Assembly (NCBI GenBank): GCA_976226885.1
Contig: OZ320317.1
Coordinates: 7,502,001-7,566,000, forward strand
Source of the DNA: Iphione sp. A-MEVVRFRX5
Taxonomy: Eukaryota
Length of the DNA stretch: 64,000 nt
Direction: 5' to 3'
The position numbers and the translations under genes were made by a program. Below, piece by piece: positions 6,867-45,370 of the stretch (positions are counted from its first letter, which is position 1; every line of letters begins with the position of its first letter). Below the pieces are notes generated by a model. The model made no database searches and had not been told where the DNA came from. It was given only the letters and a program-made list of their open reading frames with translations.

Positions 6867-9800
6867 TCACGAGCAGGCGCTGTCTGTGCCATTCTTATCC
6901 GCATCATCCTTCTCATCTTTACCCTCTGACTGGGTGGTCGAGTCAGTGCCACTCTCCATATTCTGAAAGAGAACATAGACAATAGGCATACACACAATGT
7001 ACACTACACATGTAAACAACATAGAAGGACTCTAACCTTTAATGGTCTTCACAACAGAAAGTGTTTTGTGAGCAGATCAAGAGACATGATGGAGACTATA
7101 CACTGAACAAGAAAACTCCGGTGCTATTCCTTTCAAAGCAAAAAGTGAAATTGTGCATTGGTGCATACATATAGAATTAGATTGTAAACATTCGTAAGTG
7201 CTACAGTTCGGTAGAGTATGTGTCTACCTTAGTATGTTATCTACGTATGACCAGTAACATATACTTCCGATAAAAAAAAAGTTGATTCATTTATCAGGTT
7301 CATTACAACACATTTATTGTTCTTTAACTCAACCATCGCTGGTCAAAGATACGCTTGAAATATCCAAAACATCCAACACAGCAAAATCTACAGTTGAAAG
7401 GAGAACTTAAAACTATGGTTTCGCTCAAGAAAAGAGAGAGCTGTTGATTTAAAGCTAAATACCTCTAGCTCTTTCATGATTTCATCCGTGAAATCTGTAG
7501 GATTATTTTTGTAGGCCAATGCCGCTCGGATCGCATCTCGGAAACACTGTTGTAGAAACGTGTCATGCTCATTGAGTATACTCAGCATAAATTGTCTATA
7601 TACACAGCATAATTTTCCCAAAATTCGTTTTCTATCGTTATCAAATGTCATCTCTCCTACTAAAGGATATCACAAGATTAAGATCAAATGTTGATTCATA
7701 ATAAGTAACAAGATTCTCATGGTACGTACCTTCACTACATTGGTACCATCCGAGGCCGAGACAAAGTAGAAAGGCATGTGGTTCTTTTTGGAAAAGCTAA
7801 AGCTCTTCTTAGTTACGCTATAGTCAACTGAAAAGAAAAGTTATAACATTAATCCAAGAAAACATTAGACACCTTGTGTCCGTTCCAGGTACTAAAGTCA
7901 TCGTTAAAGTTACGTCTGAAGACTAGACTAGAGCACCAGACATTTGTGACACAATCACAGATATCTTTAAGAAGCGGTACTACTCAGTGTTTCTAATACA
8001 CCGTATACCTTACAATAACTATGGCAGGTATTTATTGAGGCCTTTTATACATTCATATAAAAGAATACACGCTCCATGTACCTCTGGACCAAACCTGCTG
8101 AGTATCACTGGATTGATGACTGACCCTGCTCTTCTAAGAGGAGCAAGTTTCTGATCTTCATTCTTGTATTTTTGTAATTCTGCAAGACACAATGTGTCCT
8201 CACCTCACCCTCCATTCATCCCAAAAGACTAAAAACTGCTGGTGAGTCACATGACCCATGATAACCCACAGATCATCATGGGACAGAGAAAAAGTGAACA
8301 ACTGTTGAATACCAAATAAATGATACCTGCGAGCCACAACAGGCAAAACCCTGAACCCCATGCCACCTGTAGCGACAACAGTTACCAACCACACTAAGAA
8401 AAAACAGTAAAATAATGGACTGTCTGCCATATGCGGTTAGCAACAAATATTGTTGGGAAAGTAACCAGGGTGGTTGCCAGGATATCCATTAAGATACCCT
8501 CACAGAGCATGACTCACCCCAGCAATAACCCCACAGAGAATGACTCAGCATAGCGATACCCCGACAGAGCATGACTCAGCATAGCAATACCCCCGCGGTG
8601 TATGACTCACCATAGCAATACCCCCACAGAGCATGACTCAGCATAGCAATACCCCCGCGGTGTATGACTCACCATAGCAATACCCCAACAGAGCATGACT
8701 CAGCATAGCAATACCCCCGCGGTGTATGACTCAGCATAGCAATACCCCCCCGGAGCATGACTCAGCATAGCAATACCCCCCCGGAGCATGACTCAGCATA
8801 GCAATACCCCCATGGAGCAGGACTCAGTGTAGCAATACCCCGACAGAGCATGACTCACCATAGCAATACCCCCACAGAGCATGACTCAGCATAGCAATAC
8901 CCCCATGGAGCAGGACTCAGCATAGCAATACCCTCACAGAGCATGACTCAGCATAGCAATACCCCAACAGAGCATGACTCAGCATAGCAATACCCCCGCG
9001 GTGTATGACTCACCATAGCAATACCCCCACGGAGCATGACTCAGCATAGCAATACCCCCATGGAGCAGGACTCAGTGTAGCAATACCCTCACAGAGCATG
9101 ACTCAGCATAGCAATACCCCCCACAGAGCATGACTCAGCATAGCAATACCCCCGCAGTGTATGACTCACCATAGCAATACCCCCCACAGAGCATGACTCA
9201 GCATAGCAATACCCCCATGGAGCAGGACTAAGCACAGCAATACCCCCATGGAGCAGGACTCAGCATAGCAATACCCTCACAGAGCATGACTCACCATAGG
9301 AATACCCCCACAGAGCAGGACTCAGCGTAGCAATACCCCCACGGTGCATGACTTACCATAGCAATACCCCCACAGAGCATGACTCAGTGTAGCAATACCC
9401 CCACGGTGTATGACTCAGCGTAGCAATACCCCCACGGTGCATGACTTACCATAGCAATACCCCCCACAGAGCATGACTCAGCATAGCAATACCCCCATGG
9501 AGCAGGACTCAGCATAGCAATACCCTCACAGAGCATGACTCACCATAGCAATACCCCCACGGAGCATGACTCAGCATAGCAATACCCCCATGGAGCAGGA
9601 CTAAGCACAGCAATACCCCCATGGAGCAGGACTCAGCATAGCAATACCCTCACAGAGCATGACTCACCATAGGAATACCCCCACAGAGCATGACTCAGCG
9701 TAGCAATACCCCCACGGTGCATGACTTACCATAGCAATACCCCCACAGAGCATGACTCAGTGTAGCAATACCCCCACGGTGTATGACTCAGCGTAGCAAT

Positions 9801-12800
9801 ACCCCCACGGTGCATGACTTACCATAGCAATACCCCCCACAGAGCATGACTCAGCATAGCAATACCCCCATGGAGCAGGACTCAGCATAGCAATACCCTC
9901 ACAGAGCATGACTCACCATAGCAATACCCCCACGGAGCATGACTCAGCATAGCAATAATATGTCAACAGAAGCAATGACTTCACTTTTCAAGGTAGCACG
10001 CAATTGTCTGTTTGTTTCCAGCCATGTTTTATGACTCAGCTTCTGATCTCCTGCCGGTCTTCTTTAAGCAAAATGGAGCAATGCAATTCTGATCTGCTCC
10101 CGGTCAGACGCAGTGGAGATGAGAACAGCCACCTCACACCTCTCATAACAAGATTGTAGTCCCACGAGGTCTATTGTCCCCCGCCACTAAGTGCCCATTT
10201 CATGCTTGACTGCACCTCCCTTGGTCAAAGAGTGTGAGTGAGTGAGTGATTGAGTGTGTGTATGTGTGTATGTGCATGCATGTGTGTGTGTTAGCAAAAG
10301 AGTACATTGACATAATTTTATCTTTAGCATACTTGAATTACTACCAAAATTACCCAGTTCCATGGGTCCATGGACATAAGTATCATATATCAAAATTGGT
10401 TCATTTGACTGATGGGTTTTAGAGTTATAAGACCCACAAGAGTGGGATGGAAGGTAGGATGGTCAGACAGCACCATTCCTAAGGTCTCCCCATCCATGAG
10501 GTGGGGGACAATAGACCGATCGCCAGCCCCAAAAGAAACAGGTAGCGCGGATGTAATTTTTATGAATTATTATGTCATGGCGTGAATCCACCAATCAAAT
10601 AGCTTAAAATTGCAACAATGTCCTACTTACGTAAAAATTACGCCCACGCTTCCCGTTTCTTTCGTGGCTGGCGATCGGTCTATTACAAGACCAAGAACCC
10701 TACTGCAGCCAGAACATTTGAAACTGAGTATTAGAAAAAAAAGTCATACGTGTACTCTTCTTGACAACAGCAGAATAAAACTGTCCATTCACTGCACCTA
10801 CCATCTATTTTATTGGCAGCACATAAACACGGTATTTCTGGTCGATATTCGCGCAGCTCGGAGTACCACATGGGAAGATTTTTGTATGTTACCTTCCTAG
10901 TCACGTCAAAAACCTGGACAATAAGGAATACAACAGAATAATGTTTATCACTTAGATATTGTATTTTAGTAGAAGGATTTAAATGTATTCTTTACTCCAT
11001 AAATGGTATTACAAAACCTACAAAGCAATCATCGGATGATGCATGAGACAAAGTATTACTACTTATTAGGGACAGAGTAGGCAGAGCGATGTCATTGTTT
11101 GAGGGGGTGATTATTTGTACACTTAGTTTGAGGATAAACTCTGGCCATCTGGAACTTTAAAAAAAAAAGGGTTTCTTGGAGAACCCATAGCAAATGGAGA
11201 GTGGCGATTTTCCAAACTGCTGGTATCCACATACTTCACGACACACCCGTCTGCCTCACAGGCCATTTCACCGTGGAAGGGGGAATTAATGTGGTAAGGT
11301 CATTGTGAACACATACAGACTGGCAAGTTTCCTCGTTCGTCCAGGAATGATACTTACTAATATACAGGCATGTGCTTGATAGTAGTAGGAAGGGTGCATA
11401 CTCGAGAAACGTTCCTGTCCTGCAGTATCCCAGAAATCTGTAACCATCAATATATCGTTATAAACAGCTTTACTAATATCATACATGTATATATACATTA
11501 TAAATATAGTTATATAGAGAGCCCTTAAATCACGTCTATGCAATAAACAACATGTGATTTCATTGGCTATGACATGATATTTCCAAAAAGGAAACTAATA
11601 ATCTATAGATATGAATATAAATGTCATACATACTATTACATGATTATAATAATACATACATATATATATATATATATATTGTTTAATGAAACAAGGCTGT
11701 TATTGAGGGTTAGAATGCCTCCGGTCCAGAATGCTGCATGTTTCCCAGAGCAGAGGCTGAGTGGAGTAGGTTAAGGAAGGGGTGTATATAAGGTGGCATC
11801 CCATGGCGTCCATGTGTATGATAAGGTATGGGTGAAGGCCTACTCCATCCTAATGTCAGCTATACATAGCTTCATTGTGGAAGCTGTAGATTGAGGTTTT
11901 ATATGGTTACACTGGACTTAGATTTGAAGCTGTGGTACGAGGATCCTTGTCAAGCTGTCGCTGGTTAATTCAATAAGCAAAACATTTGCATCAAACTATA
12001 GAGGTGACTCCGAAGTCCGAACACTTGAAAACCAAACTTTCCCTAAACCGAACGATTTTTCTGGGAACCAACCATTTCCTATATATAGCTACTCAGATAT
12101 CTAAAATATTCAATTTCCGAATCTGAACTCTGTTATTTTGTTTAAATTAAGTTAAATTATATTAAAAAAACGAATGCTCTCCCCCAAGTTTATTATAAAT
12201 CAAAGGGAAGTGCTACTGTTTGATGAGCTGGCACCTCCTAGAGCTGACTGTGGGTTGTGACAACCTAAAGTAAGAGAACAAAGCGCAGAGCGTCTAACAT
12301 AGGTTAAAAGTCGTTTTTCGGCAGTTTCTCCATGGGATCTGCCACTATGCAAAATCCGAATTGTTGAATGTTCAGTTTTGGAATTCACTCTGTATATCCC
12401 TTTATAAGAAACATTTGTCAATGGATAGCCATAGCAAAAATATGGATTTCTGGGTGAATTCCCAGATAACTTAGCCTTGAGAGGAAAAGGGGCAGAATAC
12501 TATGTACGATATGGTAGCCCTGGGGTTCCATAGTTGCATATGAGTAACAAATTAAGGGATAAATGTCAACAGACATATGTATCTGAAACATGTACTAATT
12601 TAAGCATGTATGGGTATTGTGTTGATAAATGGTATCACTGAAATAAACTATCATAGACGCATATGTGTTGTGTATTTAGAAATGCATACTTACCCACTTG
12701 AACTTCTTGATCATCTATCGTTGTCTTGTATTTAAATAAAGTCAATGCATATGTAGACAATTGCTGTGGCTGGCTATCGAACGGTTAAGGAAAATGTATA

Positions 12801-15756: not shown

Positions 15757-16362
15757 TATAAAGCCAGTACCAATGCAGTTATATTCATTTGCAATTATAA
15801 CAATTCAAAAATTGTCTCCTGCCCATCCTAGATATGACTGGCTTGGAGCCTGACACAAAGCACATGGAGCGTCGGTATGGTGACGCCTGTAAAACCACAG
15901 TTGTATCCATGTGCAACTGGCGATGTGGCATGATGATAATGCAACAGTGCAACACTGGCAAAGGTCTCATCCTCTGACAAGTTGGATCAGCATATTTTAA
16001 AGAAGAAACACCGTTCAGTGTGTGTACAAACATACAACATACTGCAGTGCTCTTTTGACAGGTCAGACAGAAGTTATGCTGGCTGCCCAGAGCTGGCTGT
16101 CAGTACTTAAAAATACTTGGCCTACCCTGAGCCAGACTCCAAGCGACCCAAGGAGGAAACAAGCCGCTGGGGCGGAATGGGGAAGTACATAAGTATTGGA
16201 CGTTTGAGTCCAAGACGTTACCAACTATAATGGATGAGCTTTGCTCCTATGGTCTACAAACCCAGGGCATCTATTACACGTACAGTTTTACTGTGTGCCA
16301 AACAAGAGTATATATAGCCTGATTGACTTTGTCTTACGCCGCACAACAACTACATTGCGACA

Positions 16363-17841
16363 ATGGGACAAACCTGGACTAACTTCGTCGTCGGGGACCT
16401 TGAGGACCAAGCTCATTCTTGGGATGAGATATGCGACTGTTACACAAGACTGCTGGCGACCGATGCCGCCTACTCGGCCATCATGCGTAAGGGCATTGTG
16501 GCCTTCCTGCGGCTGCGCATGGAGGAGACGGACAAACCGCAAGAAGTACGCCAAGCATTTCATGACCCCAGCTGGGTACAGTGGGTACGACTCTCTGGCA
16601 GTATAGCCGACGGTGGTGGTACATGCCGGTGGTTCCGTCACCGCCAGCCGGACTTTGAGATAGACATGCTCTATCAAGTAGGTATAATCAGCAGCGCCCA
16701 GCAGGATGCCATTGTGGTCTTCATGCCAGAGAAACCTGGCTATGTCCAGGTGAGGAAGCGCCCCGAGACCTACCTCTCGCTGCACCCGCTCTTACGCAGG
16801 GACCGTCCTGAGCTGAGCGAAGAATTCAACACTGAGGGCCCCAGGGAACAGTTTGTCAATACTCTAGACATGCAGAAACGTGTGGCCGAAGTATTTCCGC
16901 ATCGAGATGGGGATGGTGAGATCGACAGACTGAGTGCCGCGCTGATTGAGGTGAACGAGTCAGAGCTGCAGGTCTTCGCGAGTGAACTCATCAAAGGTCC
17001 CTCGTGCATGACAGAACTTGTGGTGTCTCTCAAGAATGACCCCAAGATTCTGTTCTCCTGTGATAGCGTGTTGGCCTTCAAGCTGGAGCGATGGCTTCCG
17101 CTGCTGGACCAGTGGCTCCATCGAGAGGGAAGACATTGGCCATCGGAAGTGATGATTACAAAGTGTTATGAAGAGCGCTGCCATATTGTGGCCAAGAAAT
17201 CTCCGACCGAAACAGTGATCAACACCGAGTGGCGGCTGTCTTTCTCCGCCATGGAGACCCTCCTCTTCAACTCTTTTAGCCAGGACCAGAAGGTATGCTA
17301 CTACTTCCTCAAGTCACTCTTCTACCGTCACCTGCGTGGTATTGAGGATGGGGAAGAGCAGCACCTCCAGTCTTATGCCATGAAGACGGAAATGTTCTGG
17401 ACCCTGGAACAGACGCCAGCTTCTGAGTGGGCAGAGGCTGACCTCTGCACCAACGCCCTTCGCGTGCTGACCAGATTGGACCAAGATTTGCACCGTGGCA
17501 CTATCCCTAACTATTTCCTCCCAACCATGAATCTTATCAACCCTGCAATTTATGATCGCTCGCTGATTAACCGCATTGCCGAGCATGTGCATCTCCTCTG
17601 TAATGACCTGGAAGCAGCTGTGCCGCAGGACCTGGAGAAGATGCTGCGACTTGGTGAGGCCATCATGTCTGTGCTGCGCTGTGTGCTCATCTACATTCAA
17701 GTGAAGATGGCCCAGGTCATTCAAAAGCGCCGAGAGGGTGCAGGTGCTCCACCACTGCCTCCCATGTTAGCTGCAATGCAGGCCTTCAACCTAGGACTGG
17801 ATGGACTATTCCAAAGTCTCCAGGGAGACCAACAGCAGTGA
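16363..17841 (+). CDS. Mab-21-domain cGAS-like receptor (cGLR) nucleotidyltransferase, 492 aa, intronless
   Basis: SGSIADG...DFEIDML (GS plus ExD), a third acidic residue in CDSVLAF, and Mab-21 motifs WP...CHIVAK, EWRLSFSAME, LQSYAMKTEMFW and IPNYFLPTMNLI. Confidence 0.92.
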   Translation: MGQTWTNFVVGDLEDQAHSWDEICDCYTRLLATDAAYSAIMRKGIVAFLRLRMEETDKPQEVRQAFHDPSWVQWVRLSGSIADGGGTCRWFRHRQPDFEIDMLYQVGIISSAQQDAIVVFMPEKPGYVQVRKRPETYLSLHPLLRRDRPELSEEFNTEGPREQFVNTLDMQKRVAEVFPHRDGDGEIDRLSAALIEVNESELQVFASELIKGPSCMTELVVSLKNDPKILFSCDSVLAFKLERWLPLLDQWLHREGRHWPSEVMITKCYEERCHIVAKKSPTETVINTEWRLSFSAMETLLFNSFSQDQKVCYYFLKSLFYRHLRGIEDGEEQHLQSYAMKTEMFWTLEQTPASEWAEADLCTNALRVLTRLDQDLHRGTIPNYFLPTMNLINPAIYDRSLINRIAEHVHLLCNDLEAAVPQDLEKMLRLGEAIMSVLRCVLIYIQVKMAQVIQKRREGAGAPPLPPMLAAMQAFNLGLDGLFQSLQGDQQQ

Positions 17842-18767: not shown

Positions 18768-19467
18768 ATGTTAAACAAAGGTAACCATGGTTTCGAGAAA
18801 CAAGTGATTTCATACAGCAAATGGTCTGATGCTGATCTGTGTGACATGCACAACAAACTAATAAGAGGGGAAGGTATCCTAGATACAGTTGGGGATCATA
18901 AGGCCAAGTGGGAGTCCTTCGAAAATTCCATTCGTAACTATCTGGAAGAAACCTGTATGCAGAAAACTGTTGTGGTAAAGAAAGAGATGGATTTGTTCCA
19001 AGTCAGCACTCTGAAAGAGATGATCATGGATAGAAAATATTCCTTTCGTAAATGGAAAAACACTGGCGCTATTGACAGTAGAAGAATTTTCAAGTTCTTA
19101 AAAAGGTTAGGATTGTCCTGATGTTTGAACGTCACTCCTATTGGTGCAGTTGCTTTTCTGAGGTAGAGGGGGGAAACAAAAGCAAGTTGGGGTCTACTGA
19201 ACAAAGCCCGAGGTAGTAAATCTGTAAGCAACAAACTCCCAACTAACCCCCCCGCTGGTACTTGTAGCCTGGCCTCTGCTTTTAATAAGTATTTCCTGGA
19301 AGAAGTCTCAAGGTTACTAAGTGATCTGGATCAACTGGGTATAGGCCCGATGAGCAGGAATCTCATCCATAGCTATGTAACTGACCGAATTCAAAGTGTT
19401 GTCTGCAAAGGGGTGGGGTCTTCTTATCTAAGTATGGAGTCCCTCAAGGTTCCATCATGGGACCTAG
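18768..19467 (+). mobile_element. CR1/L2/Jockey-like LINE, 5' part of the RT gene (interrupted by the Gypsy element)
   Basis: Post-endonuclease linker (KWESFENSIRNYLEETC...DRKYSFRKWK), then LIHSYVTDRIQSV and GVPQGSIMGP directly before the LTR. Confidence 0.8.
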
Positions 19468-20355
19468 TGTGGGGACGCCCTTCTTCCTATCGGTCGGCCT
19501 CACAGTGGTGGGGCGCATCGCAGTCACCGTGGGTCCTCTGTGGGGTGCTAGGCCACACCGGCGGTTGAATGCTGAAGGTCCCACCTTCTCTACTTACACT
19601 TACATAATAATGGGGGTTTCCCCAATAACTTCACACAACAAGTTAGTGCATTTCAGGCGAGCCTCAGTCCTTGGTCTTTCTGTCTCGTCTCTGGTTCAGC
19701 AGCCACTCGCGTCGGTACGTCTGGGAGACCCTCTCTCCGAAGTGTCTGTCCAGTGTCAGTCTGCTCTCTTTTTATTGCGATTTTGCTCATTACATAAAGA
19801 TCACACCACTACTTATTATTCATCATGCCATATTGTCATTGGTTCACAAACATCGGATGACCATGAGTTGATACACCAAGCTCCGCCCTCATACCACATT
19901 GCTGTCGTTTCACAATCATCGGATGACCATGGGCTGACACATCACATTTTGTACCAGGATACAATTTCGTGTCATGCTGAACTAATCGGTACTCCCCTCG
20001 TTATGTTATCAATACTGGGCCTAAACTTTCGATGAACCCCCTCTTTATGCTGGTCAAACCCTCGTATCCTGTTTCTGATATGTAGCTCTGCCCCTCCAAC
20101 GATTGTTCACTGATTACCCTTGATTATGACGGATTGGTCTATAATTATCTAAGCCGCTGGTCGAACCCTCGTATCCTGTTTCTGATGTGTAGCTCTGCTC
20201 CTCCAATGATTGTTCATTGATTATGATTGCCCTTGATTATGACGGATCAGTCTATAATTATCTAAGCCTGCCTATGTGGGTATGATCGGCTACCTTAAAC
20301 TCTATACATACATTTCTTACCATAAAACTCAATATTCTAGTCCCCATACTTTACA
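19468..20355 (-). repeat. 3' LTR (888 bp)
   Basis: Differs from the other LTR by about 6 substitutions and 2 small indels (by-eye alignment). Internal ~110-bp direct repeat in U3; AATAAA on the minus strand near 19780. Confidence 0.97.
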
Positions 20356-20366
20356 TACCCCCCCCA
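20356..20366 (-). other. Polypurine tract (GGGGGGGGGTA) abutting the 3' LTR
   Basis: The plus strand reads aca|tacccccccccc immediately inside the LTR. Confidence 0.85.
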
Positions 20367-20403
20367 CTTAAGATTTTGGAATCGGTATTCCAATATCTAC
20401 AAC

Positions 20404-21261
20404 CTATTCTCGAGGTGGCGGCGGAATTGTTGCCCCCTGGGGTATGCCCTCGGCTCCGCGGCGTTCAGACCGTATAGCTTCTCTTCTGGGCGTTTCTCGG
20501 GTTAGCACGTGGTGGACGCTTAGGCTGACACGAGGAGTCATAGTGCCATCATCCTCAAACATGGCGTCGCATTTAGGACATCCATCCCAAGCATCTACCA
20601 CGCTCCAGAAACATCGCCCATGTATTATCGCACCACAGCATGGCATGCGGCTTGCCTGCCCAACATGCCACCCGGAGTTTTGCACATACACTATTTCTTT
20701 TCTACAGATACAGCACACTGTGGTCTCATGCCTGTTTTTGTAGAGCCTACTTCGTTCAACACTCCGCAGTACCGATCGAATCTTACTTTTCGAGAATGCC
20801 CTATGGGCTTGATGATTTTTGATCTTTTGGATAAGGTTCTCCACCGAGTACCTTGCGTGTGCTGCTAGTAGACTAAGGGTAAGGGAGCCGCGAGGACTCT
20901 CCGTACCATATAGCTCGAGGACTTCTCCCAGGAAGTCATGGGCCTGCGTTGGTTGGTGGGTTATGCCATACTCCAATAAGTGTTCGAACAATTTATCGCA
21001 TGCAAAATAGTTAAGGAACTCTACGTACTTGCTAGCTTGGGAGTCCCACATGCGAGCCCATATTCTCGCCGTCACCTCTTGATCGCTAGTATCTGATCCC
21101 AATATCTCTAGGGCCTTGGTGTACTCTCCTTCATCTAATATTGGGGGTAACTCACAGATACTCGTTTCCTCGATGTTATCATAATGCAGCAAGGCTTCGA
21201 AGTACTTACTTCGTTGCGCTAACTGCTGGACATCAGTCTTACCCAATTTTACTTCCCCCAT
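20404..21261 (-). CDS. Accessory ORF4 of the Gypsy element: putative BTB/POZ-like N-terminus plus RING-type zinc finger, 285 aa
   Basis: Intact ORF with a strong Kozak context (atcATGG). BTB-like LAQRSKYFEALL...ELPPILDEGEYTKALEIL...FLNYFACDKLFEHLLEY. Zinc-ligand string CCIC-x22-CCGAIIHGRC-x10-CPKC. Confidence 0.75.
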   Translation of the reverse strand: MGEVKLGKTDVQQLAQRSKYFEALLHYDNIEETSICELPPILDEGEYTKALEILGSDTSDQEVTARIWARMWDSQASKYVEFLNYFACDKLFEHLLEYGITHQPTQAHDFLGEVLELYGTESPRGSLTLSLLAAHARYSVENLIQKIKNHQAHRAFSKSKIRSVLRSVERSRLYKNRHETTVCCICRKEIVYVQNSGWHVGQASRMPCCGAIIHGRCFWSVVDAWDGCPKCDAMFEDDGTMTPRVSLSVHHVLTRETPRREAIRSERRGAEGIPQGATIPPPPRE

Positions 21262-21619
21262 GATATATGATACTTAACTAAATTGGTTACACACAGGTTA
21301 AACTAAAAAAAAAAGAATGAGTAAATACCGTTATGGATACACTTGCTGCAGTGTGCTAACAACAATAGGAGGACAACCACTAGTTGTATATAACACGTCA
21401 CAGACTTAACCCAAAACAATCAATAGACAGTGAGATCAACAACCCTCAACTCGTAGTGGTAATACACTAGGCTTGTGCGGTTTTGAATTGAATAGGCGCT
21501 ATCCTATTCTTCACGGGGATGAACCTGTAACCTCCCAATAGTGCATCCAGACACAATGTACTACAGGTAACTGAATAGGCGCTATCCTATTCTTCGCGGG
21601 GATGTAAAACTAGTTACAC

Positions 21620-23808
21620 CTACCAAACATGCGTGCGGGACATGTCCTCGTCCCCATCTTCTGACATCAAATACTCACTGGGGATAACACCTACTGTTGA
21701 TACACTTCCGCTCTTAGGTGGTAGCGGGATCGGCAAGCTACCTTTACCTTTGGATTCGGACAGCAGGGAGACTTGCGTGGATCGGACGGAATCTTCTCGT
21801 GAGACTGTGCTACACCCAGTTTTAGGGGTAGGAGGCAAGGGTCTCTTTACTCCTGAAGCGGCCAGATCCCGGAGTTCCATTGTAGACCTTTGCCTGCCTA
21901 CTACCCGTCCAACTGGCTTAGTCCATTGACTTGTTAACCATCGTTTCTTCTTACATACACAACATAACACAATCGCGGTCAGAACACCTAGGATGGAAAA
22001 ACTTGAGCCCACGGAAGAGCCTATTATTAACTTTTTCTTTTCAAATGTTGGTGGTTTTACCCATAATGCCTGCGGGTCCCCGGCTTTTAACGTGAGCGGT
22101 GCATGCTCCACGAGCCTTTTTACCTTTTTGAAGTCCTTCAACTGTTCAATTTTGAAGCCAAATCAATGGTTTCCGCAGGTTTCGTTTCCTCAACATTATC
22201 TAATGCAATCTGTCGAATATACTCCCCAGCAACCCGCCATGAATCTGCTTCCGCTAGGCACCCAGGCCCTAGTTGGAGGATTCTTATTCTTCCGATCTTC
22301 TCACGTTTTTCCTGTTGACCCAAGCAATGTATAGAAAACTCTGAACCATTTCTTCCAGATAGTAAGTATGTGTTCCGTCTTAATTTATAGGCCACATTGG
22401 CCCGAGGGTCCGAAAATAGCCTAATTGTACAAGCTTTTAATTTCTCCTGTTGTCCAATAATAATACCCGTCACACATTGCTCATGTTGGTGGTGGACCGC
22501 CGGTGGGCAAACCACGGGTCGGTCCCCATAACACTCTGAGATACTGATTATCCCTCCCCTCCTGGTGTTCCAACCTACCTGTGCTGGAATATCCACAGTT
22601 TCCCGCCAGACATTCTTTGTACCGGTGTACACAGGTACGCTCCTGATAGTATACAATATGTATTCCTCATTGTTAACGGTGGGAACGGCTGCCCTGTATA
22701 CAAATTCGTTTTGTTTCATCCATAAAAGTTCTACCCCCACATTTCTGTAATACCAATGTAATGGGAGGGAGTGCGATGTCAGTTCCCCCTCCTGTCGTGC
22801 CAAAATGTCACTCAGTTGTTCAGGGGTAAGAAGGTCGGCCGTCAACCATCCGCGATCGAGTGCGCGCTGTTGATCAACGAATAGTCCATGGCGGTCCTTC
22901 CAGTCCCTATAAATGACTTCTAATTCATTCAACACCCTATCCACATCCTGCATAATTTCTAACTGAGTTATTCGCTGTATACCTGCCGCCAACCTATTTT
23001 GCAACTCCGAGGCTGCTTTCTCTAATGTTCGTATATGTTTTTCATCTATCCTCATCTGGTAACCCTGCTGGTTAACAGTAGCTATTGTCTTATTTACCAG
23101 AGTCACCAGTTCATTGTGCGAGTGCACCAGTTCCTCTTGCGTTGTCCTCAGTACGTCCACGGTTTTCTGCAAGTCCTGTACCTCTGCCTCAGTTGCCGTC
23201 CCAAACAACCAGTTACTCAGTCGGCCTACCCCGTCGACCACGCCACGTTTCTGCCGAGTAACTGTACGGGGGTGACCAGACAAGGCGTCCCTCATCTGAT
23301 CCACCCGATCGGTCCACATCTGGTGGGTTCGGTTTGATGCTTTACCCCGCATGTGCTCGAGGTAAACTTGCACCAAACTAATCGCCTTCTGCACATCTGT
23401 TGGCATGGGCCTCTGAATTGCTACCAGAACAGTCCATGTCCCTACAACTTCTCGCCCGGCTCCTGTCTATGTTACCAGGACGCCGTCCTCTTCTAATAAC
23501 GACGCCGTACTGAATACGGCGGCACAGAGCATGAACACCGTCCTACACAGTAGACGCATGGTCGTTTGTTGGTCGGTTGCGTCTTCTTGGCCTCCCGTGT
23601 TGGTTGCCGAACGCTTCCTCAGAACAACTGGTTCGGTCTCGATCTGCTCTAGCCCTGCGTTTTCTGTGAACGTTGGTCCACGTTGTCTCTTTGCTGTCGC
23701 GCTGTCACTGTCAGGGGCGAGTGGTTCCCCGCTCCTTTTATGGCCTCCGCGTCGGGGTGGTGGCAGAGTCCAATCAGGGTCGTCTTCGTAGCGGCCAATG
23801 GGTCTCAT
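21620..23808 (-). pseudogene. env: env: baculovirus-F/errantivirus-like fusion glycoprotein, disrupted by one TAG (23467-23469) and one frameshift (about 22140)
   Basis: Signal-like MRLLCRTVFMLCAAVFSTA; furin site RQKR followed by fusion peptide GVVDGVGRLSNWLFGTA; heptad repeats; Cys-rich ectodomain; TM LIIGSSVGSSFSILGVLTAIVLCCVC-KKKR. ORFs 23467..23877 and 22138..23406 are in the same frame. Confidence 0.88.
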
Positions 23809-26800
23809 TTTAGCTGCGCGTGGCAGATAAGTCCTCCCCTTGGCTTGACGGGTGGTAGCGGTGATGGGACGTCCCAAACGAGGTCCCTCGGGATGATCCG
23901 AACTTGTGACTGGTTAACCGTTTTAATAACCCCCGACTTCTGATGACGGCAGCGTATGACCGGCCCCTGAACCCGGATAACTTCGAACTCTGGGTTCCAC
24001 TTAGGATCGAACTGTGCCTCCCGGTTATTGCGCAACACGACCGTGTCCCCTGGTTGAACTTCCTGTCGTGTAGCACGTGCTTCCAGCCGTCTCTGGTTGA
24101 ACTCTCGTGACTCCTGCGTACGTCGTGCCGCATCCTGGAGTGCCCTTGCCAAGGCGCCCAACCGATCGCTCACTATTGTAGGGTCCTGACCTTCCACGCG
24201 TCGCAACATTGACGTCACCGGGATCTTTGGTCTTCTCCCATACATCAGGAAAAATGGTGTGTAGCCTGTCACTACTGAGGTGGAAATACGGTGAGCTAGA
24301 AGGGCGTTTCCCAGCTCATCTTCCCACCGACTGATGCACCCGTTCACCAACTTTCTGATCAGTTGCTTAAGTGTACGATGAAACCTCTCAACACGACCAT
24401 TACTCTGCGGATGATAGGGTGTCGTTCGCCGATGCTCAATATCCATCTGTTTCATGTAGCTGCCCAGTGCTTCGCCATTGAACTCACCTCCTTGGTCAGT
24501 GATGATCACTTCTGGAGTCCCATACCGTGGAATGAACTCCCTCTCAAGGAAGTTCAAGACGTTCTGCTCCCCCTTGGTTGGTATGGGTTTAGCCTCCACC
24601 CAACCAGTACAATGGTCAATGACAGTTAATATGTACCGGTTACCTTCTGAAGAAACCTCGAATGGGCCTGTCAGGTCCATTCCTAAGATCTGCATCGGGT
24701 ACGTGGCTATGGGCATCTCACCTGGGCGGGCGTGTTGTTGGGTGTCCCTATGCATTGCACATTTGGTGCACTTTGCTAACGTCGTCTTGACATCTCGTCT
24801 CATGCGCGGCCACTTATATGCCTCCTTAATGCGCCATAAGGTCTTGTTCACTCCCTGATGCCCGACTTCCGTATGGGCACGCCGGATGACTCTCCATCGG
24901 TGCGAAGGCGGTAGAACCAGTCTTGGGTAGGGTGCAGCGCCGCTTTCTTCTGTGATGTCGTACAAGAGTCCTCCTGTCAAGACGTATTGTTCATCATCTC
25001 CGTCTTTTGCTTTCTCATACTCTTCCATGGTTGCTTGTTCTTCCCGCAACTGGTCCATGTCCAAGCCGTCTGTGTCCCAGGGTATGGGCGTGTCATCTTC
25101 TGTTGCTTCCTGCGGGCTGGCCCATGGCATTGCGGGATCAAAGATGCACACTTCAGGTGGCGCCCTGATTCGGCTGAGCATATCGGCACGTATGTTGTGT
25201 GATCCTTGTCTGTATTCTATAGGGGCTCCATATTCTTCGAGTAGCACGGCCCATCTCTGGATCCGAGTGTTAGCTACCTCTTGCAGAAATAGGGATTTCA
25301 GTGGTTTATGGTCGGTCAGGATGGTAAACTTAGCCCCATACAGATATGGTTGTAGTTTCTTCAAACAGTAGATCACCGCCCATGCTTCCTTCTGGATCAC
25401 TGCCCACTTCTTCTGTCGGTCATCTAACTTCTTAGACACGTACTGCACCACTCGCTCCACCCCCTTCACTTCCTGTACCAGGATGCCACCAATCGCATAG
25501 TCACAGGCATCCGTGTACAGCTTGTACGGTTGACTGGGGTCAGGGATGGTCATGACATGAGAGCTAGTCAGGGCTAGCTTCAGTTGATCGAACGATCGTT
25601 GGTGTCGGTCAGTCCACTCCCACTTCTTATTCTTCTTTGTCAGTTCGGTGAGGGGTGTAGCAATCGCAGCAAAGTTCTCTACACACTGTCTGTAATAGCC
25701 GGCCATCCCCAGAAAGCTCCGTACTACTTTCACACTTTCAGGCCTACCCAAGTCGCGGATAGCGGTCACCTTGTCGGGGTCTGACTGGATACCGTCTTGT
25801 GACACTACGTACCCCAACAGCTTCACCTCCCTGGCATCGAACGTACACTTGGATGGTTTCAGTTTGATGCCAGCTTCAATCAGGCGCTCCAATACAGCTC
25901 GGGTGTTCTGCTCGTGTTCTTCATCGGATTCAGAGTAGATTACTATGTCATCCAGGTACACCATCACACAACGTCCGATAAGATCACGGAGCACTTCTTG
26001 CATCAGTCTCTGAAAAACAGCCGGGGCGTTGCACAACCCAAATGGCATCACCAGGAACTCAAATAGACCTCTATGGGTCACAAACGCTGTCTTCTCGATT
26101 GATTCGGTGCTCATCGGTACCTGCCAGTATCCACTTTTCAGATCCAACGTTGTAAGCTTGGTACTGCCACCCAGCTGGTCGAAAATGTCTTGCACCAAAG
26201 GTAGCGGATGACTATCTTTGACGGTGATGGAATTCAGTCTGCGATAGTCAACACAGAACCTTGTGGATCCGTCCTTCTTTGGTACCAGGGTGATTGGAGA
26301 CGCCCACGGTGACTTGGACGGTCGAATCACCCCATCTGTCAGCATCTTGTCGAGCTCTTCCTCAACAAGTCTTCTTTTGTACAAGGGCATCCTATAGGCC
26401 CTAAGACGGAAGGGTCCCTGATCTGCGGTATCACTAGAACAGGTGGTCTTGACTCGCCCCAGAGGCTCTGACTCGTTAGCAAACACCTCGGGGTATTCTG
26501 TCGCCCACCGTGTGTCCCCGATGACACACGCCACTGGAACTCCCTTTGTCGTCCGGAAAGGATAGTCCTTGTCCGCTATAGTCATGGTTCGTTGATCATA
26601 GTTGATGATCCCTCCTCCATCCCTGAGGTAATCATCCCCTACAATAACTTCATGGGGTAGTCCCCTGACTACCACGGCAGTTAACGTCCTCCCTCCATCT
26701 ACGGGCAATGCCACCTTTCCCAGCACGTGAAGGTGGTGCCCCGAAACACTGCACAATGCGGGTGAAGCAGAGAGCATCGGTTGACGATGGACTCTGCTAC

Positions 26801-26930
26801 AGACGAAACGAAAATGTTTTTCACTCACCAGTGAACAGGACGCTCCCGTGTCGACCAAAGCCACCGTGTTGACCCCGTGGATGGATAGACGGATGGTCGG
26901 TCGCTCTGGCAACACGGTGCTTAGTTTCCC
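23805..26930 (-). CDS. pol: pol polyprotein (protease-RT-RNase H-integrase), Gypsy order
   Basis: LVDTGAS (protease), YLDDIVIYS (RT), LYTDACDYAIGGIL (RNase H), HTEVGHQG...CTKC (HHCC), MDLTGPF...ITDQGGEF...NGRVER (DDE). Open for more than 1036 codons. Confidence 0.97.
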   Translation of the reverse strand, partial: GKLSTVLPERPTIRLSIHGVNTVALVDTGASCSLVSEKHFRFVCSRVHRQPMLSASPALCSVSGHHLHVLGKVALPVDGGRTLTAVVVRGLPHEVIVGDDYLRDGGGIINYDQRTMTIADKDYPFRTTKGVPVACVIGDTRWATEYPEVFANESEPLGRVKTTCSSDTADQGPFRLRAYRMPLYKRRLVEEELDKMLTDGVIRPSKSPWASPITLVPKKDGSTRFCVDYRRLNSITVKDSHPLPLVQDIFDQLGGSTKLTTLDLKSGYWQVPMSTESIEKTAFVTHRGLFEFLVMPFGLCNAPAVFQRLMQEVLRDLIGRCVMVYLDDIVIYSESDEEHEQNTRAVLERLIEAGIKLKPSKCTFDAREVKLLGYVVSQDGIQSDPDKVTAIRDLGRPESVKVVRSFLGMAGYYRQCVENFAAIATPLTELTKKNKKWEWTDRHQRSFDQLKLALTSSHVMTIPDPSQPYKLYTDACDYAIGGILVQEVKGVERVVQYVSKKLDDRQKKWAVIQKEAWAVIYCLKKLQPYLYGAKFTILTDHKPLKSLFLQEVANTRIQRWAVLLEEYGAPIEYRQGSHNIRADMLSRIRAPPEVCIFDPAMPWASPQEATEDDTPIPWDTDGLDMDQLREEQATMEEYEKAKDGDDEQYVLTGGLLYDITEESGAAPYPRLVLPPSHRWRVIRRAHTEVGHQGVNKTLWRIKEAYKWPRMRRDVKTTLAKCTKCAMHRDTQQHARPGEMPIATYPMQILGMDLTGPFEVSSEGNRYILTVIDHCTGWVEAKPIPTKGEQNVLNFLEREFIPRYGTPEVIITDQGGEFNGEALGSYMKQMDIEHRRTTPYHPQSNGRVERFHRTLKQLIRKLVNGCISRWEDELGNALLAHRISTSVVTGYTPFFLMYGRRPKIPVTSMLRRVEGQDPTIVSDRLGALARALQDAARRTQESREFNQRRLEARATRQEVQPGDTVVLRNNREAQFDPKWNPEFEVIRVQGPVIRCRHQKSGVIKTVNQSQVRIIPRDLVWDVPSPLPPVKPRGGLICHAQLK

Positions 26931-27891
26931 TGATGTTCTTGTCGGGCTTCAGCTACTTGGTTCCTCATTCCTCCACTGCACTCCCTTCCGATGTGGCCCA
27001 GACGTCCACATCGAAGACAGTAGGGGGTACCGTCTTCACTCCATCGTCTCCGATCAGCCTGCGGTCGCGTGGCCCTAGGCTGGTCAACCGGGATTGGCTG
27101 TCGTGGTGGTGGTACTGGCTCTTTCTCCTTTCTACTAAGCTTCGTTACTTGCTTTTGCAACCCCCTCACCTGCCTCTGTAGCTCCTCCATAACCTCGACT
27201 ACTGACTTTCCATCTTTTGTCTGTCTTCCCGCATCGAAGGCATTGACGTCCATTGGTTCGTTCCTTACCTTGTCTTGCGTGGTGGCCCATGGCGCCCCAT
27301 TTCATCTTTAGCCAGGGCAATAGAGCGTGCCACGTCTCCTGCTTGAGCCATGGCTATTTGTACGGTAGTCGGCCGGGTCAGATATACCCTCTCCATAATG
27401 CTTCTGTCGTTTATACCTTGGATGTAAAACCGAACCAGTCTCTCCTTCGTTAGCTGCTCCTTCAATTGCTCTGGCGTGTAGGCTTGATTCATGGCCTCAA
27501 GAAAGCCCTGTCCATATTCCCTTACCGACTCGTAGGGCCGTTGCCTCATCTTCTCTAACTCGTTTCTTCTGTATTCCATTTCATCTTCTTCAAGGAATGT
27601 GGTTACCATGTGTTCTTTGACCTGTTCCCAGGTTCCAGTCCTTCCTGGCTGTGAAGCCAGGAACGTCTGGATGCTAGACCGGAGTGTCCCCTTTGTCAGG
27701 TAGCCCAATATCGGAACCAGCAATTTGTCCTCGATAACTAGCCATTGCTTGATCGAATCTAAGTCATCGAGGAGCCTCCTTACTTCGTCCCTAGACTTCC
27801 CATCGCATGGGGTCATTCGTTTCGTGTATTCTCGGATGTGAGCTTGTATTTGTGGGGCCTCGGCCTTGTCTTTTACTTGCGCCTGTGCCAT
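26921..27891 (-). CDS. gag: gag (capsid-like domain plus CCHC zinc knuckle), split by a single-base frameshift near 27290
   Basis: The 208-aa ORF (TWEQVKEHMVTTF...RQRPYESVREY...RFYIQGI) continues in the -1 frame to EPMDVN...CLRCGRLGHIGREC. Confidence 0.85.
26924..26930 (-). promoter_or_regulatory. -1 ribosomal frameshift slippery site G GGA AAC at the gag/pol junction
   Basis: Gag ends CAG GGA AAC TAA, and pol is open in the -1 frame across the heptamer with no ATG of its own. Confidence 0.85.
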
Positions 27892-28129
27892 GGTTACTAC
27901 TTTCTTTTCCTTCCCCTTCTCCTTTCTTCTCTTCTTCTACAATAGCTGCTTTCCTCTTCTCTTCCCTCTTCTATCTTCTACGGCAATTTCTTTTCCTCTT
28001 CTATCTCATATGGTTCGACTTAATTCACTTACTTGTCACTCATCAGTGGCCCTTTTTGTGCCTCGTTTGTGGGTCTGGAAGATGTCTCTTCCTTTGGGTG
28101 CTCGTGTTCCTCTCACCAGGTCGCATCAG

Positions 28130-28147
28130 ATCCCATCCTCGTCGCCA
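28130..28147 (-). other. Primer-binding site complementary to the 3' end of tRNA-Ser(GCU)
   Basis: The plus strand reads ATCCCATCCTCGTCGCCA (18 nt, ending in CCA), 4 nt from the 5' LTR. This matches the 3' end of metazoan tRNA-Ser-GCT as I recall it. Confidence 0.85.
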
Positions 28148-28151
28148 AATC

Positions 28152-29043
28152 TGTGGGGACGCCCTTCTTCCTATCGGTCGGCCTCACAGTGGTGGGGCGC
28201 ATCGTAGTCACCGTGGGTCCTCTGTGGGGGGGCTAGGCCACACCGGCGGTTGAATGCTGAAGGTCCCACCTTCTCTACTTACACTTACATAATAATGGGG
28301 GTTTCCCCAATAACTTCACACAACAAGTTAGTGCATTACAGGCGAGCCTCAGTCCTTGGTCTTTCTGTCTTGTCTCTGGTTCAGCAGCCACTCGCGTCGG
28401 TACGTCTGGGAGACCCTCTCTCCGAAGTGTCTGTCCAGTGTCAGTCTGCTCTCTTTTTATTGCGATTTTGCTCATTACATAAAGATCACACCACTACTTA
28501 TTATTCATCATGACATATTGTCATTGGTTCACAAACATCGGATGACCATGAGTTGATACACCAAGCTCCGCCCTCATACCACATTGCTGTCGTTTCACAA
28601 TCATCGGATGACCATGGGCTGACACATCACATTTTGTACCAGGATACAATTTCGTCGTGTCATGCTGAACTAATCGGTACTCCCCTCGTTATGTTATCAA
28701 TACTGGGCCTAAACTTTCAATGAACCCCCTCTTTATGCTGGTCAAACCCTCGTATCCTGTTTCTGATATGTAGCTCTGCCCCTCCAACGATTGTTCACTG
28801 ATTACCCTTGATTATGACGGATTGGTCTATAATTATCTAAGCCGCTGGTCGAACCCTCGTATCCTGTTTCTGATGTGTAGCTCTGCTCCTCCAATGATTG
28901 TTCATTGATTATGATTGCCCTTGATTATGACGGATCAGTCTATAATTATCTAAGCCTGCCTATGTGGGTATGATCGGCTACCTTAAACTCTATACATACA
29001 TTTCTTACCATAAAACTCAATATTCTAGTCCCCATACTTTACA
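28152..29043 (-). repeat. 5' LTR (892 bp)
   Basis: Near-identical to 19468-20355; bounded by the PBS and the CTAG TSD. Confidence 0.97.
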
Positions 29044-30050
29044 CTAGCGCGTTCTCCATTGGCATTGACATCATCTGAGTTTTTCCATCCGGGTGTTTCC
29101 CCATTCTCTATGCTGATGACCTTACAGTATATGCTGAAAATATCTTCCAACTCAGGGATATTGCAATAAGTGTACTCAATAAGGTATCCCAGTGGTGCAG
29201 TGAGACAGGGCTGTTATTGAGTAAAGACAAATTTTTGTACATAACCATAGGCAAGACTTTCGGATTCAATCTTGATCTTATCATAGGCAGTGATCAACTT
29301 TGTAGGGTCCCTTGTGCAAAAATCTTTTGATACCATATCTCATCTGATCTGGGTCCAGTTTACACTTTGAGGTATCTAAAGAGAGCCCTTTTGACTGCAA
29401 GCCTCAGGATTGGTAGAACTAAAGAACTATTGCCAGTAAGTGCAAAGAAGATTTTATTTTCTTCCTTGGTACTGACTCATCTAAACTACCACTCGATATT
29501 GTTATTTGACATGTCAAAGAGCCAGAGATCAAGGGTCCAATCTCTCCTGAATAGGTGTGCTTGAGTCTGTTTTCAGACTGGTGACTGCATTCCAGCATGG
29601 CTGCTAGCTGAAAGGTTCTCCGTACCTGACATATCCTCATCGGTTTACAACAGAGGTACAAAAGTAATTGGCAAACTATTAAATCTGGGTCTTATCCCTA
29701 CTGCCACAACAACGAAAACTCAATCAGGTTCTGTTGTTTGAGGTGGTGTTCCAAATCCTAAAAGTAGTAAGTTCAGGCACATTCTGTGTTTTAAAACAGT
29801 TGTACAGTGGAATCTCAAATTGCTCAGTAAAACGTAACTTGTTGGGTTTGACTTGTGATGCTGATTATTATATTTCATAGAAGAATTACTTTTCATCTTT
29901 TGTGTCATGTTTATCCCACATGTTTCTTCCATTTCTATGGATATCGTCTCTCAATGTGCTAAATATTTCTGGGAACAGCTGTCTGTCTCAATACTTCTTT
30001 ATGTACTATTTACTCACTGAAGTGTCACATGTGTAATGTTAATAAATTTT
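29044..30050 (+). mobile_element. LINE, 3' part of the RT gene (continuation of 18768-19467)
   Basis: SAFSIGIDII, ILYADDLTVYA and KILFSSLVLTHLNYHS follow the TSD. Stops are present; aataaa near 30040. Confidence 0.85.
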
Positions 30051-43806: not shown

Positions 43807-45370
43807 TTACAACATCATTTCAGCTGCCATGGCTTGCATTGCTTCTTCCTTCTTGCCTGTCATCTCATTCCAAATATCAATAAAGAACTGTAAATAAAAG
43901 ACAAAGTGGACCTTATTCATAGATCTGGCACTGTACTTGATTTTCTGAATGTATGAATTGAACTGTTCACACACCTCACTGTTGATGCCACTTTCCAAAG
44001 ATGCCAATCTGGTGGACTTGTACACAAAGGGGCATTTGTGGGAAAATCCATGAAAAATATGGAAAAAGTGGTACTCCTTCCAAAATGCTGGTTCTCTGTT
44101 GAGGCAATATTCCTCCAGCTGACAACTAAAATCATGAAAAAGCTCACTGGGTGGCTCTTCCAAGTAAAGGAAGGCTGATGATGCTGGGTGTTTCCTTCCT
44201 TCACTGCCAGTTATGGTATGAAAGCCATAGCAATGCCCATGTAAGGGGCAAAACCAAAGGAATAGACAAGTAACCCTATTCTTGGTTGCCTCCTTGAAAA
44301 CTTCCTGGCATCTGCTGGATGTTTCACTTTCCTTTGATAGTCTATACTGTGGGAGGTCACACACTCTGCCTCCATGTTTCGTGAAATAATATGCTTTTCC
44401 TGATTTTATGGGGTTGTAGTCTCCCAGACGACGAGCTGGTTGAGGATGTGGGTCATTTTGATGGACATCTTCAGCGTTGCCAATTAATGTAGCAAAGAAA
44501 TCCACAAAAGGTGTTAGTTCTCTGGATGTCATGGCCTTCTCCAGAAGACAAAATATTTCTTTGAGGTCCTTTTGCAGATCGTAGATTGATTCCTGGTGGG
44601 ACTGGAGTTTCAGGATCAATGGAAAAAATCTTACATTGATCAGGGAGGTGATGGGAGATGTAGAACCCAGTACCTCCATAATTGGGTTCAACTTGGCCAT
44701 AACATTTTGGTTGTATTCAAATTGTAGATATTTTCTGAATACCTCTCCCATTTCAGGTGGAATACACTTGAGGATAATTTCTTTTCTCTCATTTTCGTTC
44801 CTCCTCAGTTCAGCTTCATTCTTTGCATTGGTTTTTTTCCATGTCTGGATGTTGCTTGTGTACTTTGCTGCATAATACAGGAGATCAGACTGTGCTTGTC
44901 TCATAGGGTCTCTTATTTCATCTTTGAATAAGCAAAGAGCCTAGAGGTTGTTCGCTGTCCAGGCATTTCAGGCTCCACAGCAGTTGTAGGATGTTCCATT
45001 GGACTGATATCGGCAAATCGCAGGAAGATGCCCAGCTTAGTGCCATCACATGCAAGGACCTTTGGATTTGTCCCACAGCTTTGACACTGCTTTCTGAAGT
45101 CTTTTCTGAAATTGGCCATCCATGAGAAGATCCAATTTACAAAAATTTGACGGCTCATGAAGTTGGCTTTGGTGTAATATCTGTGACCTGTTATGGAACA
45201 GTAGGCAGAACAAGAGACTCATGCCACTTTAACATGATTGATGAAGTCCCAACCAACTTCATCACCTGCTGCTGTCTGGCTAGAGAGGAAGTGAATGGCA
45301 TCCTGCTCACCAGTATAGACTACTCTACACTCATCATTCTCTTGCAGACACTCTCGGTTGTGCACCTAAA
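43807..45370 (-). pseudogene. KDZ/Zisupton-like transposase (one frameshift near 44910)
   Basis: AGDEVGWDF; CQSCGTNPKVLACDGTKLG; WFCPLHGHCYGFH...EGRK; FHDFSCQLEEYCLNREP; FHGFSHKC; NSEVCEQFNS. Confidence 0.65.

Follow-up and report, generated by a model that had tools for sequence, protein, structure and literature searches.

Is the env-bearing Gypsy element found in the genome of Iphione sp. A-MEVVRFRX5 a complete and potentially infectious endogenous retrovirus, and what does the gene following its env encode? The whole stretch of DNA that was analysed, referred to here as the window, is 64,000 nucleotides long (NCBI GenBank assembly GCA_976226885.1, contig OZ320317.1, positions 7,502,001 to 7,566,000 of the forward strand), and positions 19468-29043 of its minus strand are, with hardly any room for doubt, a Ty3/gypsy long terminal repeat (LTR) retrotransposon with an F-type env. 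Its genes follow one another in the order gag, pol, F-type env and ORF4, the fourth open reading frame (ORF). An earlier reading of the same letters, the original prediction, had described a young, complete four-ORF element and missed the novel part of the locus, which is the nature of the fourth ORF. As a whole, the locus is best explained, with reasonable probability, as a decayed Gypsy copy of recent insertion, in which ORF4 encodes a predicted Cullin-3 binder that may send host defence proteins to ubiquitin-mediated destruction. The element class and the decayed copy are ordinary; the new part is ORF4, a fourth gene of BTB-like-plus-RING type, in a group of elements (the errantivirus-like elements of invertebrates) usually drawn as simple gag-pol-env genomes.

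Conservation and distribution of ORF4

ORF4 (20404..21261, minus strand) is open over 285 aa and comprises a BTB/3-box-like helical region (about aa 10-175) followed by the RING-like finger. Genome-wide mapping recovered other copies of the element, as the original prediction had expected, and these belong to three subfamilies. Eight pairs from different subfamilies or lineages were compared. The ratio of nonsynonymous to synonymous substitution rates (dN/dS) of ORF4 was 0.12-0.17 in seven of them; the remaining pair, which is also the closest (the window versus an older close copy), gave 0.26. That of pol was 0.04-0.07 in the same comparison, with dS near saturation in several pairs and with the gag and pol rows of one nested locus left out. 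On these sequence comparisons, ORF4 is a real, conserved gene under purifying selection.

A HMMER search of 1.84 billion representative proteins with ORF4 retrieved 27 matches at E<=0.001, among which 26 are plausible relatives (148-358 aa, 21-39% identity). The 27th, a 1373-aa repeat protein, was set aside. No name is attached to any of the cluster members listed for these 27 matches. The reading of ORF4 proposed here would give a lead on function for about 26 unannotated protein clusters. In some of these clusters there is more than one member, fragments being among them, on contigs of 0.3-2.3 Mb, a pattern that a mobile gene would be expected to produce. A word-index protein search with ORF4 found no match, the 28-row profile retrieved one protein, which was already known, and scans for related loci with the ORF4 alignment found none among metagenome or viral contigs. 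In addition, a frameshifted ORF4 homologue (L079:771-1688) lies on a 1.87-kb contig with overlapping ends and a 119-bp tandem repeat; this contig may represent a circle, a tandem unit or a collapsed LTR.

Within the genome, the ORF4-bearing subfamilies form a single clade (support 99) in a quick tree of 34 reverse transcriptase (RT)-RNase H rows, all of them copies from this genome, with no named reference elements. The ORF4 profile gave no match in 20 RT-neighbour stretches, including sister families with both LTRs seen. Two of these ORF4-negative stretches branch inside the ORF4 clade, one being a young copy and the other a truncated one. Indeed, a young copy of the second subfamily (L100, G000:C19:22811800-22821700), with LTRs 99.9% identical, does not carry ORF4, which suggests that ORF4 would act in trans and be dispensable in cis. 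Concerning splice signals, a donor-like site after the primer-binding site, together with a poly-T/AG acceptor before ORF4, is present in the subfamily of the window only and is not conserved in the other two.

Two further groups of loci deserve mention. One is a sister env-bearing Gypsy family (L088, L089, L091 with L106-L108), in which the RT is 61-62% identical and an extra frame of about 367 aa, unrelated to ORF4, is located upstream of gag. The other consists of three repeats of at least 9.6 kb, 99.6-99.9% identical, each containing an open ORF4 (L015:1574-2437, L016:7165-8028 and L017:7202-8065) with 72% identity and a dN/dS of 0.14 to that of the window; their pol remnants are short and they have no gag, env or LTR pair. 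They may derive from an element that survives, after deletion, as a relic within some larger unit (duplicated or mobile), or else represent a co-opted copy.

No accessory gene of RING or BTB type was described for LTR elements in the literature searched, which comprised few subscription journals and not Repbase. Similarly, the terms "RING", "accessory", "extra ORF" and "additional ORF" do not occur as whole words in the main text of PMC13524379, and an annotation of ORF4 may sit elsewhere, in the element sequences.

The RING-like finger and the BTB-like region

The finger, in the C-terminal third of ORF4, has eight zinc ligands (C183, C186, C208, C209, H214, C217, C228 and C231) arranged as C-x2-C-x21-C-C-x4-H-x2-C-x10-C-x2-C, seven of which are invariant in the 28-row alignment, C208 being found in 27 of the 28 rows. 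Compared with the PDB, the ORF4 profile matches the RING E3s Hrd1 (E 9.5e-6) and Pirh2 (E 9.5e-4), and the Pfam RING models remain below cut-off on ORF4. The dN/dS in the RING and tail of ORF4 is 0.11-0.24, and basic stretches flank the finger on both sides. E2 binding, or ubiquitin transfer, is a candidate function of this finger.

The N-terminal part contains an S-K-Y-F-x-A-L-L helix followed by E-L-P, which we take to resemble BTB domains. Compared with 17 host BTB-BACK domains, the ORF4 profile scored 30.4 (P 4e-4). The register was the correct one, with both the S-x-Y-F helix and the D/N-Y/F-F helix in line, whereas 20 column shuffles reached at most 12.8 and the reversed profile 9.3. The 24 outside homologues alone gave a score of 31.5 over 146 columns (P 3-4e-4 across both tests), and in this test none of 120 block shuffles attained 30.4 (maximum 24.2). 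The AlphaFold model of ORF4 (predicted local distance difference test, pLDDT, 60; predicted template modelling score 0.52) is helical over aa 41-170, where pLDDT is 63-83. In Foldseek searches with this model, the top PDB rows were the BTB-BACK Cullin-3 adaptors KBTBD2, SPOP and KLHL11, and poxvirus BTB-kelch proteins recurred in the viral library, all of these rows being non-significant.

Predicted binding to Cullin-3

When human CUL3 20-390 was modelled in complex with ORF4 aa 1-180, the prediction scored 0.75, versus 0.11 for the best of three controls, with runs sharing at least 88% of contacts and a partner pLDDT of at least 70. Among solved complexes, 51 of 78 pass the mark applied to such predictions, as do 2 of 108 mismatched pairs; the corresponding figures for eukaryotes are 71 of 105 (solved complexes) and 2 of 126 (unrelated pairs). 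The predicted interface places ORF4 aa 19-39, 84-89 and 117-124 on CUL3 residues 49-66 and 118-135, which is the canonical BTB site and includes CUL3 residues 53, 54 and 125, known as contacts of vaccinia A55 (PMC6484134). The interface residues Y20 and P39 of ORF4 are conserved in 26 of the 28 rows, and N84 lies opposite CUL3 residue 125, at the place where A55, KLHL11 and SPOP have an aspartate. A phi-X-(D/E)-like motif follows the S-x-Y-F helix in the three subfamilies (I-E-E, I-D-E and L-S-E), this loop being variable among the outside homologues.

Several observations weigh against the proposed Cullin-3 binder with a RING-like finger, and its assignment must be interpreted cautiously. The BTB idea first arose from a motif noticed by eye, none of the 28 members matches Pfam BTB or BACK at E<=1, the HH probability of the BTB-BACK match is only 35-41%, and the four ORF4 rows of this genome, when used without the others, fell into another register (aa 98-139). 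The structural model is middling, without the BTB beta-sheet and with pLDDT below 50 in the RING; a wide structural search gave no clear match (best Z 6.2, to unrelated helical proteins), and the ESM Atlas favours VPS11/18/41 helical repeats plus RING (0.83-0.87, below the 0.9 mark). Concerning the complex, human CUL3 stood in for the Cullin-3 of the host, I30-E31-E32 are not among the confident CUL3 contacts and, because BTB-Cul3 complexes have already been solved, passing the mark indicates likeness to a BTB adaptor, which may not be binding. In addition, the C-C-x4-H spacing is atypical for a RING, the E2-contact tryptophan is present in only 17 of the 28 rows, and the contig (1.87 kb) of one outside ORF4 homologue carries no gag, pol or env. 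On balance, we regard ORF4 as probably a Cullin-3 binder.

A proposed role for ORF4

The following course of events would account for the locus. The retrotransposon landed, not long ago, in an old LINE-like repeat (long interspersed nuclear element), and since then the frames of gag, env and the tail of pol have been lost. The copies that are still open likely replicate as Ty3/gypsy elements. Judging from what is known of such elements, reverse transcription would in these copies be primed by tRNA-Ser, pol would be reached by a -1 frameshift, and Env would be activated by furin and act by class I fusion, with putative cell-to-cell movement. ORF4 would dock on Cullin-3 through its degenerate BTB/3-box region, acting in trans, and its RING would recruit a substrate or an E2. 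The Cullin-3 ligase would then be aimed at a host restriction, silencing or antiviral factor, which we favour over blocking of the ligase or an E3 working through its own RING.

Accessory genes of retroviruses, such as Vif, Vpx, Vpr and Vpu, redirect host cullin ligases (Cul5, Cul4 or Cul1) to known targets; ORF4 has no homology to them and would share their logic. Since complex retroviruses and poxviruses use cullin ligases in this way, we infer, by analogy, that host factors could also be targeted by ORF4, and their degradation is put forward as its tentative role, at somewhat less than an even chance. On a more speculative level, a widespread BTB-like-plus-RING accessory family may hijack Cullin-3 against silencing or antiviral factors, in which case invertebrate env-bearing Gypsy elements would be analogues of "complex" retroviruses, having arrived on their own, apart from the retroviruses of vertebrates, at a counter-defence in the style of Vif/Vpx. 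If true, the partners of ORF4 would reveal the restriction factors of the host, which belongs to an animal group that has been little studied, and the presence of a BTB-like region and a RING in one small protein would represent an unusual E3 architecture.

Among the other explanations, ORF4 could be a decoy that sequesters or blocks Cullin-3, shielding the proteins of the element from host BTB adaptors and degrading nothing. The same predicted Cullin-3 binding underlies this explanation, the BTB-like part is not followed by kelch, MATH or any further domain known to bind substrates, and sequestration has been proposed for A55 (PMC6484134). However, the conserved eight-ligand finger and the tail, with the low dN/dS given above, imply a second function in binding or catalysis, and we regard a mere decoy as unlikely.

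A stand-alone RING E3 is, in our view, also unlikely. Here, VPS/clathrin-like repeats at the N-terminus would bind a substrate or a membrane-trafficking partner and the fit to Cullin-3 would be coincidental. This agrees with the RING matches to Hrd1 and Pirh2, with a model that is all-helical across aa 40-175 and with the ESM Atlas, where VPS11/18/41/8 proteins, of helical-repeat-plus-RING architecture, are on top and the ten top family matches all belong to one clan. However, the Atlas scores stay below 0.9, a level often reached by shuffled proteins, the comparison of ORF4 with six host clathrin-repeat pieces gave only 8.8 (P 0.66, with low power), and the Cullin-3 complex prediction passes its mark with controls at or below 0.11.

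A Rev/CERV-like role, in which ORF4 would control the export or expression of RNA from its own element and bind nucleic acid through the zinc finger, appears improbable. In Cer1, also of Gypsy class, an accessory cysteine-finger protein is required for the export of genomic RNA (PMC10309623), and the basic stretches that flank the ORF4 finger would fit such a function. Against it, the finger resembles those of RING E3s rather than C4 fingers, sister env-bearing families of the same genome have no ORF4, and the predicted Cullin-3 interface points to a role in the ubiquitin system.

Comparison with known accessory genes

A close functional parallel to the proposed Cullin-3 binder is offered by vaccinia A55 and the other poxvirus BTB-BACK-Kelch proteins (PMC6484134, PMC6498060), in which a virus-encoded BTB/3-box is used and on whose Cullin-3 surface ORF4 is predicted to lie. 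Both A55 (PMC6484134) and ORF4 have low sequence identity to cellular BTBs. In contrast to A55, ORF4 has a RING-like finger instead of a kelch propeller, a much shorter BTB-like region and an LTR retroelement as carrier, and its binding is predicted. The cellular adaptors KLHL11, SPOP and KBTBD2, which came on top in Foldseek, have two helices aligned in register with ORF4, although ORF4 shows no significant sequence or fold match to them, has no kelch or MATH domain and carries its own RING-like finger. Among other viral proteins, the RING protein HOAR of baculoviruses was the top viral Foldseek row, without significance (E 0.03, TM-score 0.17), and for baculovirus IE-0, which also has a RING, Baculo_IE-1 was weakly matched by one of 11 ORF4 members (E 0.55).

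Additional genes are known in other retroelements. An extra gene beside gag, pol and env is present in Cer1 (CERV; PMC10309623), as is the case for ORF4, in Drosophila MDG1-group elements (sORF2; 10.1101/2025.03.14.642691) and, in the form of GDSL/DEDDy ORFs, in bdelloid elements (PMC5408684), and the polyprotein of planarian Burro has RING, MATH and ubiquitin-like motifs (PMC6431247). In the parts of these reports considered here, none of them is described as a separate BTB-like-plus-RING gene after env.

The carrier itself belongs to a known class, because 1,512 env-bearing elements, of F-type and gB-type and mostly multi-copy, have been reported across invertebrates by Chary and Hayashi (PMC13524379). 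With the F-type "ancient errantiviruses" of non-insect invertebrates from that report, the family of the window shares the gag-pol-env order, a Ty3/gypsy pol, a tRNA primer site and multiple young copies, as well as the F-type Env features (signal peptide, furin site, fusion peptide and transmembrane (TM) helix). In contrast to them, it adds a conserved fourth ORF after env, and the copy in the window is not intact. As to the host, marker searches of its genome gave 44 innexin matches and none to an arthropod cuticle domain, molluscan haemocyanin or haemerythrin; although such blanks do not demonstrate absence, they suggest a non-arthropod invertebrate as the likely host.

Structure and insertion site of the window copy

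The termini of the element agree with the original prediction. The 5′ LTR (28152..29043, minus strand, 892 nt) and the 3′ LTR (19468..20355, minus strand, 888 nt, with AATAAA at 19776) both have TG...CA ends and differ by six substitutions and two indel events (four gap columns) across 888 aligned columns, exactly the difference that had been estimated, corresponding to a substitution divergence of 0.68%. This LTR pair is among the most diverged within its subfamily. The target-site duplication CTAG is perfect at both ends (left copy 19464..19467, right copy 29044..29047), and a 4-bp duplication was found in 9 of 10 family copies tested. The primer-binding site (28130..28147, minus strand) and the G-rich polypurine tract (20358..20369, minus strand, 2 nt before the 3′ LTR) are likewise intact, the former being complementary over 18 nt to the 3′ end plus CCA of tRNA-Ser(GCT). 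The tRNA gene matching it is called tRNA-Ser gct at three of four genomic loci, and its 12-mer is typed as Ser_GCU in supplement 1 of PMC13524379. Together with the order protease-RT-RNase H-integrase and a gag with capsid domain and zinc knuckle, these are the features of a Ty3/gypsy LTR retrotransposon. Within each LTR, a segment of about 110 bp is also duplicated in tandem, with 88% identity (28737-28956 and 20049-20268).

The element is flanked by the left (18870..19467, plus strand) and right (29044..29958, plus strand) parts of an old LINE-like repeat, whose LINE identity was assigned by eye from RT-like motifs. In three of five related loci the left flank is continuous with the right one (68-78% identity), showing that the element interrupts this repeat.

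Coding regions and decay

The gag region (26921..27891, minus strand), with Retrotrans_gag and a CCHC knuckle (27019-26978), consists of pieces of 223 and 126 aa in two frames, the frame change being located near 27.27-27.30 kb. Just before its stop there is a GGGAAAC heptamer (26924..26930, minus strand), present at all seven gag ends inspected across the three subfamilies. Since it also follows the X XXY YYZ rule, this candidate heptamer is likely the site of a -1 ribosomal frameshift into pol. The pol region (23805..26948, minus strand) encodes, according to Pfam, protease, RT (YLDD at 25958), RNase H and integrase, with a bridge of about 107 aa between the RNase H and the integrase zinc domain. 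It had been described as open, which is incorrect at its end: the frame stops at 1047 aa instead of the 1151 aa of its siblings, as a frame shift after the integrase core leaves about 100 C-terminal residues out of frame.

The F-type env (21620..23559, minus strand) starts with a signal peptide from the methionine at 23559, followed by an RQKR furin site (23256-23245), a fusion-peptide-like stretch (23244-23200) and a TM helix placed by hydropathy (22003-21953), all on the minus strand. These features, located after pol, correspond to those used operationally for errantivirus env in PMC13524379. The match to Pfam Baculo_F is 24.5 bits for a cut-off of 24.1, and a profile of five env rows, two of them from another family of the same genome, matches the "fusion protein" of PDB 9w4c/9w4d (E 5.6e-6). 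An env piece folded without alignment gave no usable structure (pLDDT 39), and the word-index protein search with such a piece found no match. The env was rightly predicted to be present, although it is not whole, as its frame has an in-frame stop (23467-23469, minus strand) and changes near 22.15 kb (22.14-22.16 kb, minus strand). Its location is the same in all three subfamilies, its dN/dS between subfamilies is 0.10-0.20, and 17 of the 18 RT-neighbour stretches retrieved from the genome match the F-type env profile; therefore, env is part of the lineage and not a stray, unrelated insertion, consistent with the original prediction.

In undamaged siblings, the frames measure, stop to stop, 331-339 aa for gag, 1151 aa for pol, 694 aa for env and 289 aa for ORF4. 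The element of the window, predicted to be complete, does have four coding regions and all its termini, but four breaks affect it (gag, the pol tail and env twice) and ORF4 alone is whole. None of these breaks lies within a homopolymer longer than 5 nt, and they are private, since no close-subfamily sibling covering a break position carries that break. Private substitutions amount to 0.8% of the internal columns, compared with 0.68% between the LTRs, so that neutral decay since insertion accounts for the damage. The unbroken gag, pol and env that define errantiviruses in PMC13524379 are absent from this copy, which, judging from its lost gag, pol and env frames, is very probably dead. It can hardly be that the copy is itself complete and potentially infectious and that its breaks are assembly errors. 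None of its terminal features is missing (LTRs, target duplication, primer site, polypurine tract), and the breaks are known from the assembly. However, there would have to be four independent errors outside long homopolymers, one of them creating a stop codon, in an assembly that contains siblings with whole frames, and the private mutation load agrees with the LTR divergence.

Family age and sibling copies

The close subfamily consists of seven loci including the window, and the LTRs of the other six are 96-98% identical to those of the window. Whole frames are found in five of the seven for gag, three for pol (leaving out the pol of an unrelated nested element), three for env and five for ORF4, all four being whole in two. 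The copy nearest to the window is 98.2-98.6% identical to it but deleted, and near-full-length copies are 97.3-97.8% identical; for comparison, errantiviruses as operationally defined in PMC13524379 have copies with more than 98% identity across more than 98% of the three ORFs.

The other two subfamilies were sampled through 16 copies taken from the top ORF4 matches, so that their tallies favour an open ORF4; overall, the genome gave 75 ORF4 match rows, about 30 of which were retrieved. The second subfamily is 82-83% identical to the window in pol and 60% in ORF4. Of its 10 sampled copies, six have open frames for all four genes, and in six the two LTRs show no difference across the compared part. 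The third is more decayed, with a whole pol in none of six. The family is young and the insertion in the window is recent, as supported by these observations and by the LTR identities of 96-100% across the seven close loci, and the intact siblings anticipated by the original prediction do exist elsewhere in the genome, in the sense of copies with all four frames open, in both the close and the second subfamilies.

Some loci illustrate the fate and the company of these copies. A 2.4-kb derivative of the window's subfamily (L004, G000:C17:69708388-69710816) is reduced to LTR - partial ORF4 - LTR. An unrelated Gypsy family with F-type env (L005-L006 and L014; RT about 50%) occurs within one sibling, as a nested element, and next to another. 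The host genome thus contains several young env-bearing families.

Other features of the window

An unbroken 504-aa frame with Mab-21 and Mab-21_C domains, of the cGAS-like receptor type, is located at 16327-17841 (plus strand) and ends at a distance of about 1.6 kb from the 3′ LTR. The window also contains what is left of a KDZ transposase (43807-44940, minus strand) and of a GIY-YIG endonuclease (46825-47598, plus strand), the latter presumably Penelope-like, together with minisatellites at 8373-9900 (31-bp unit), 1-504 (42-bp unit) and 56637-57310 (29-bp unit).

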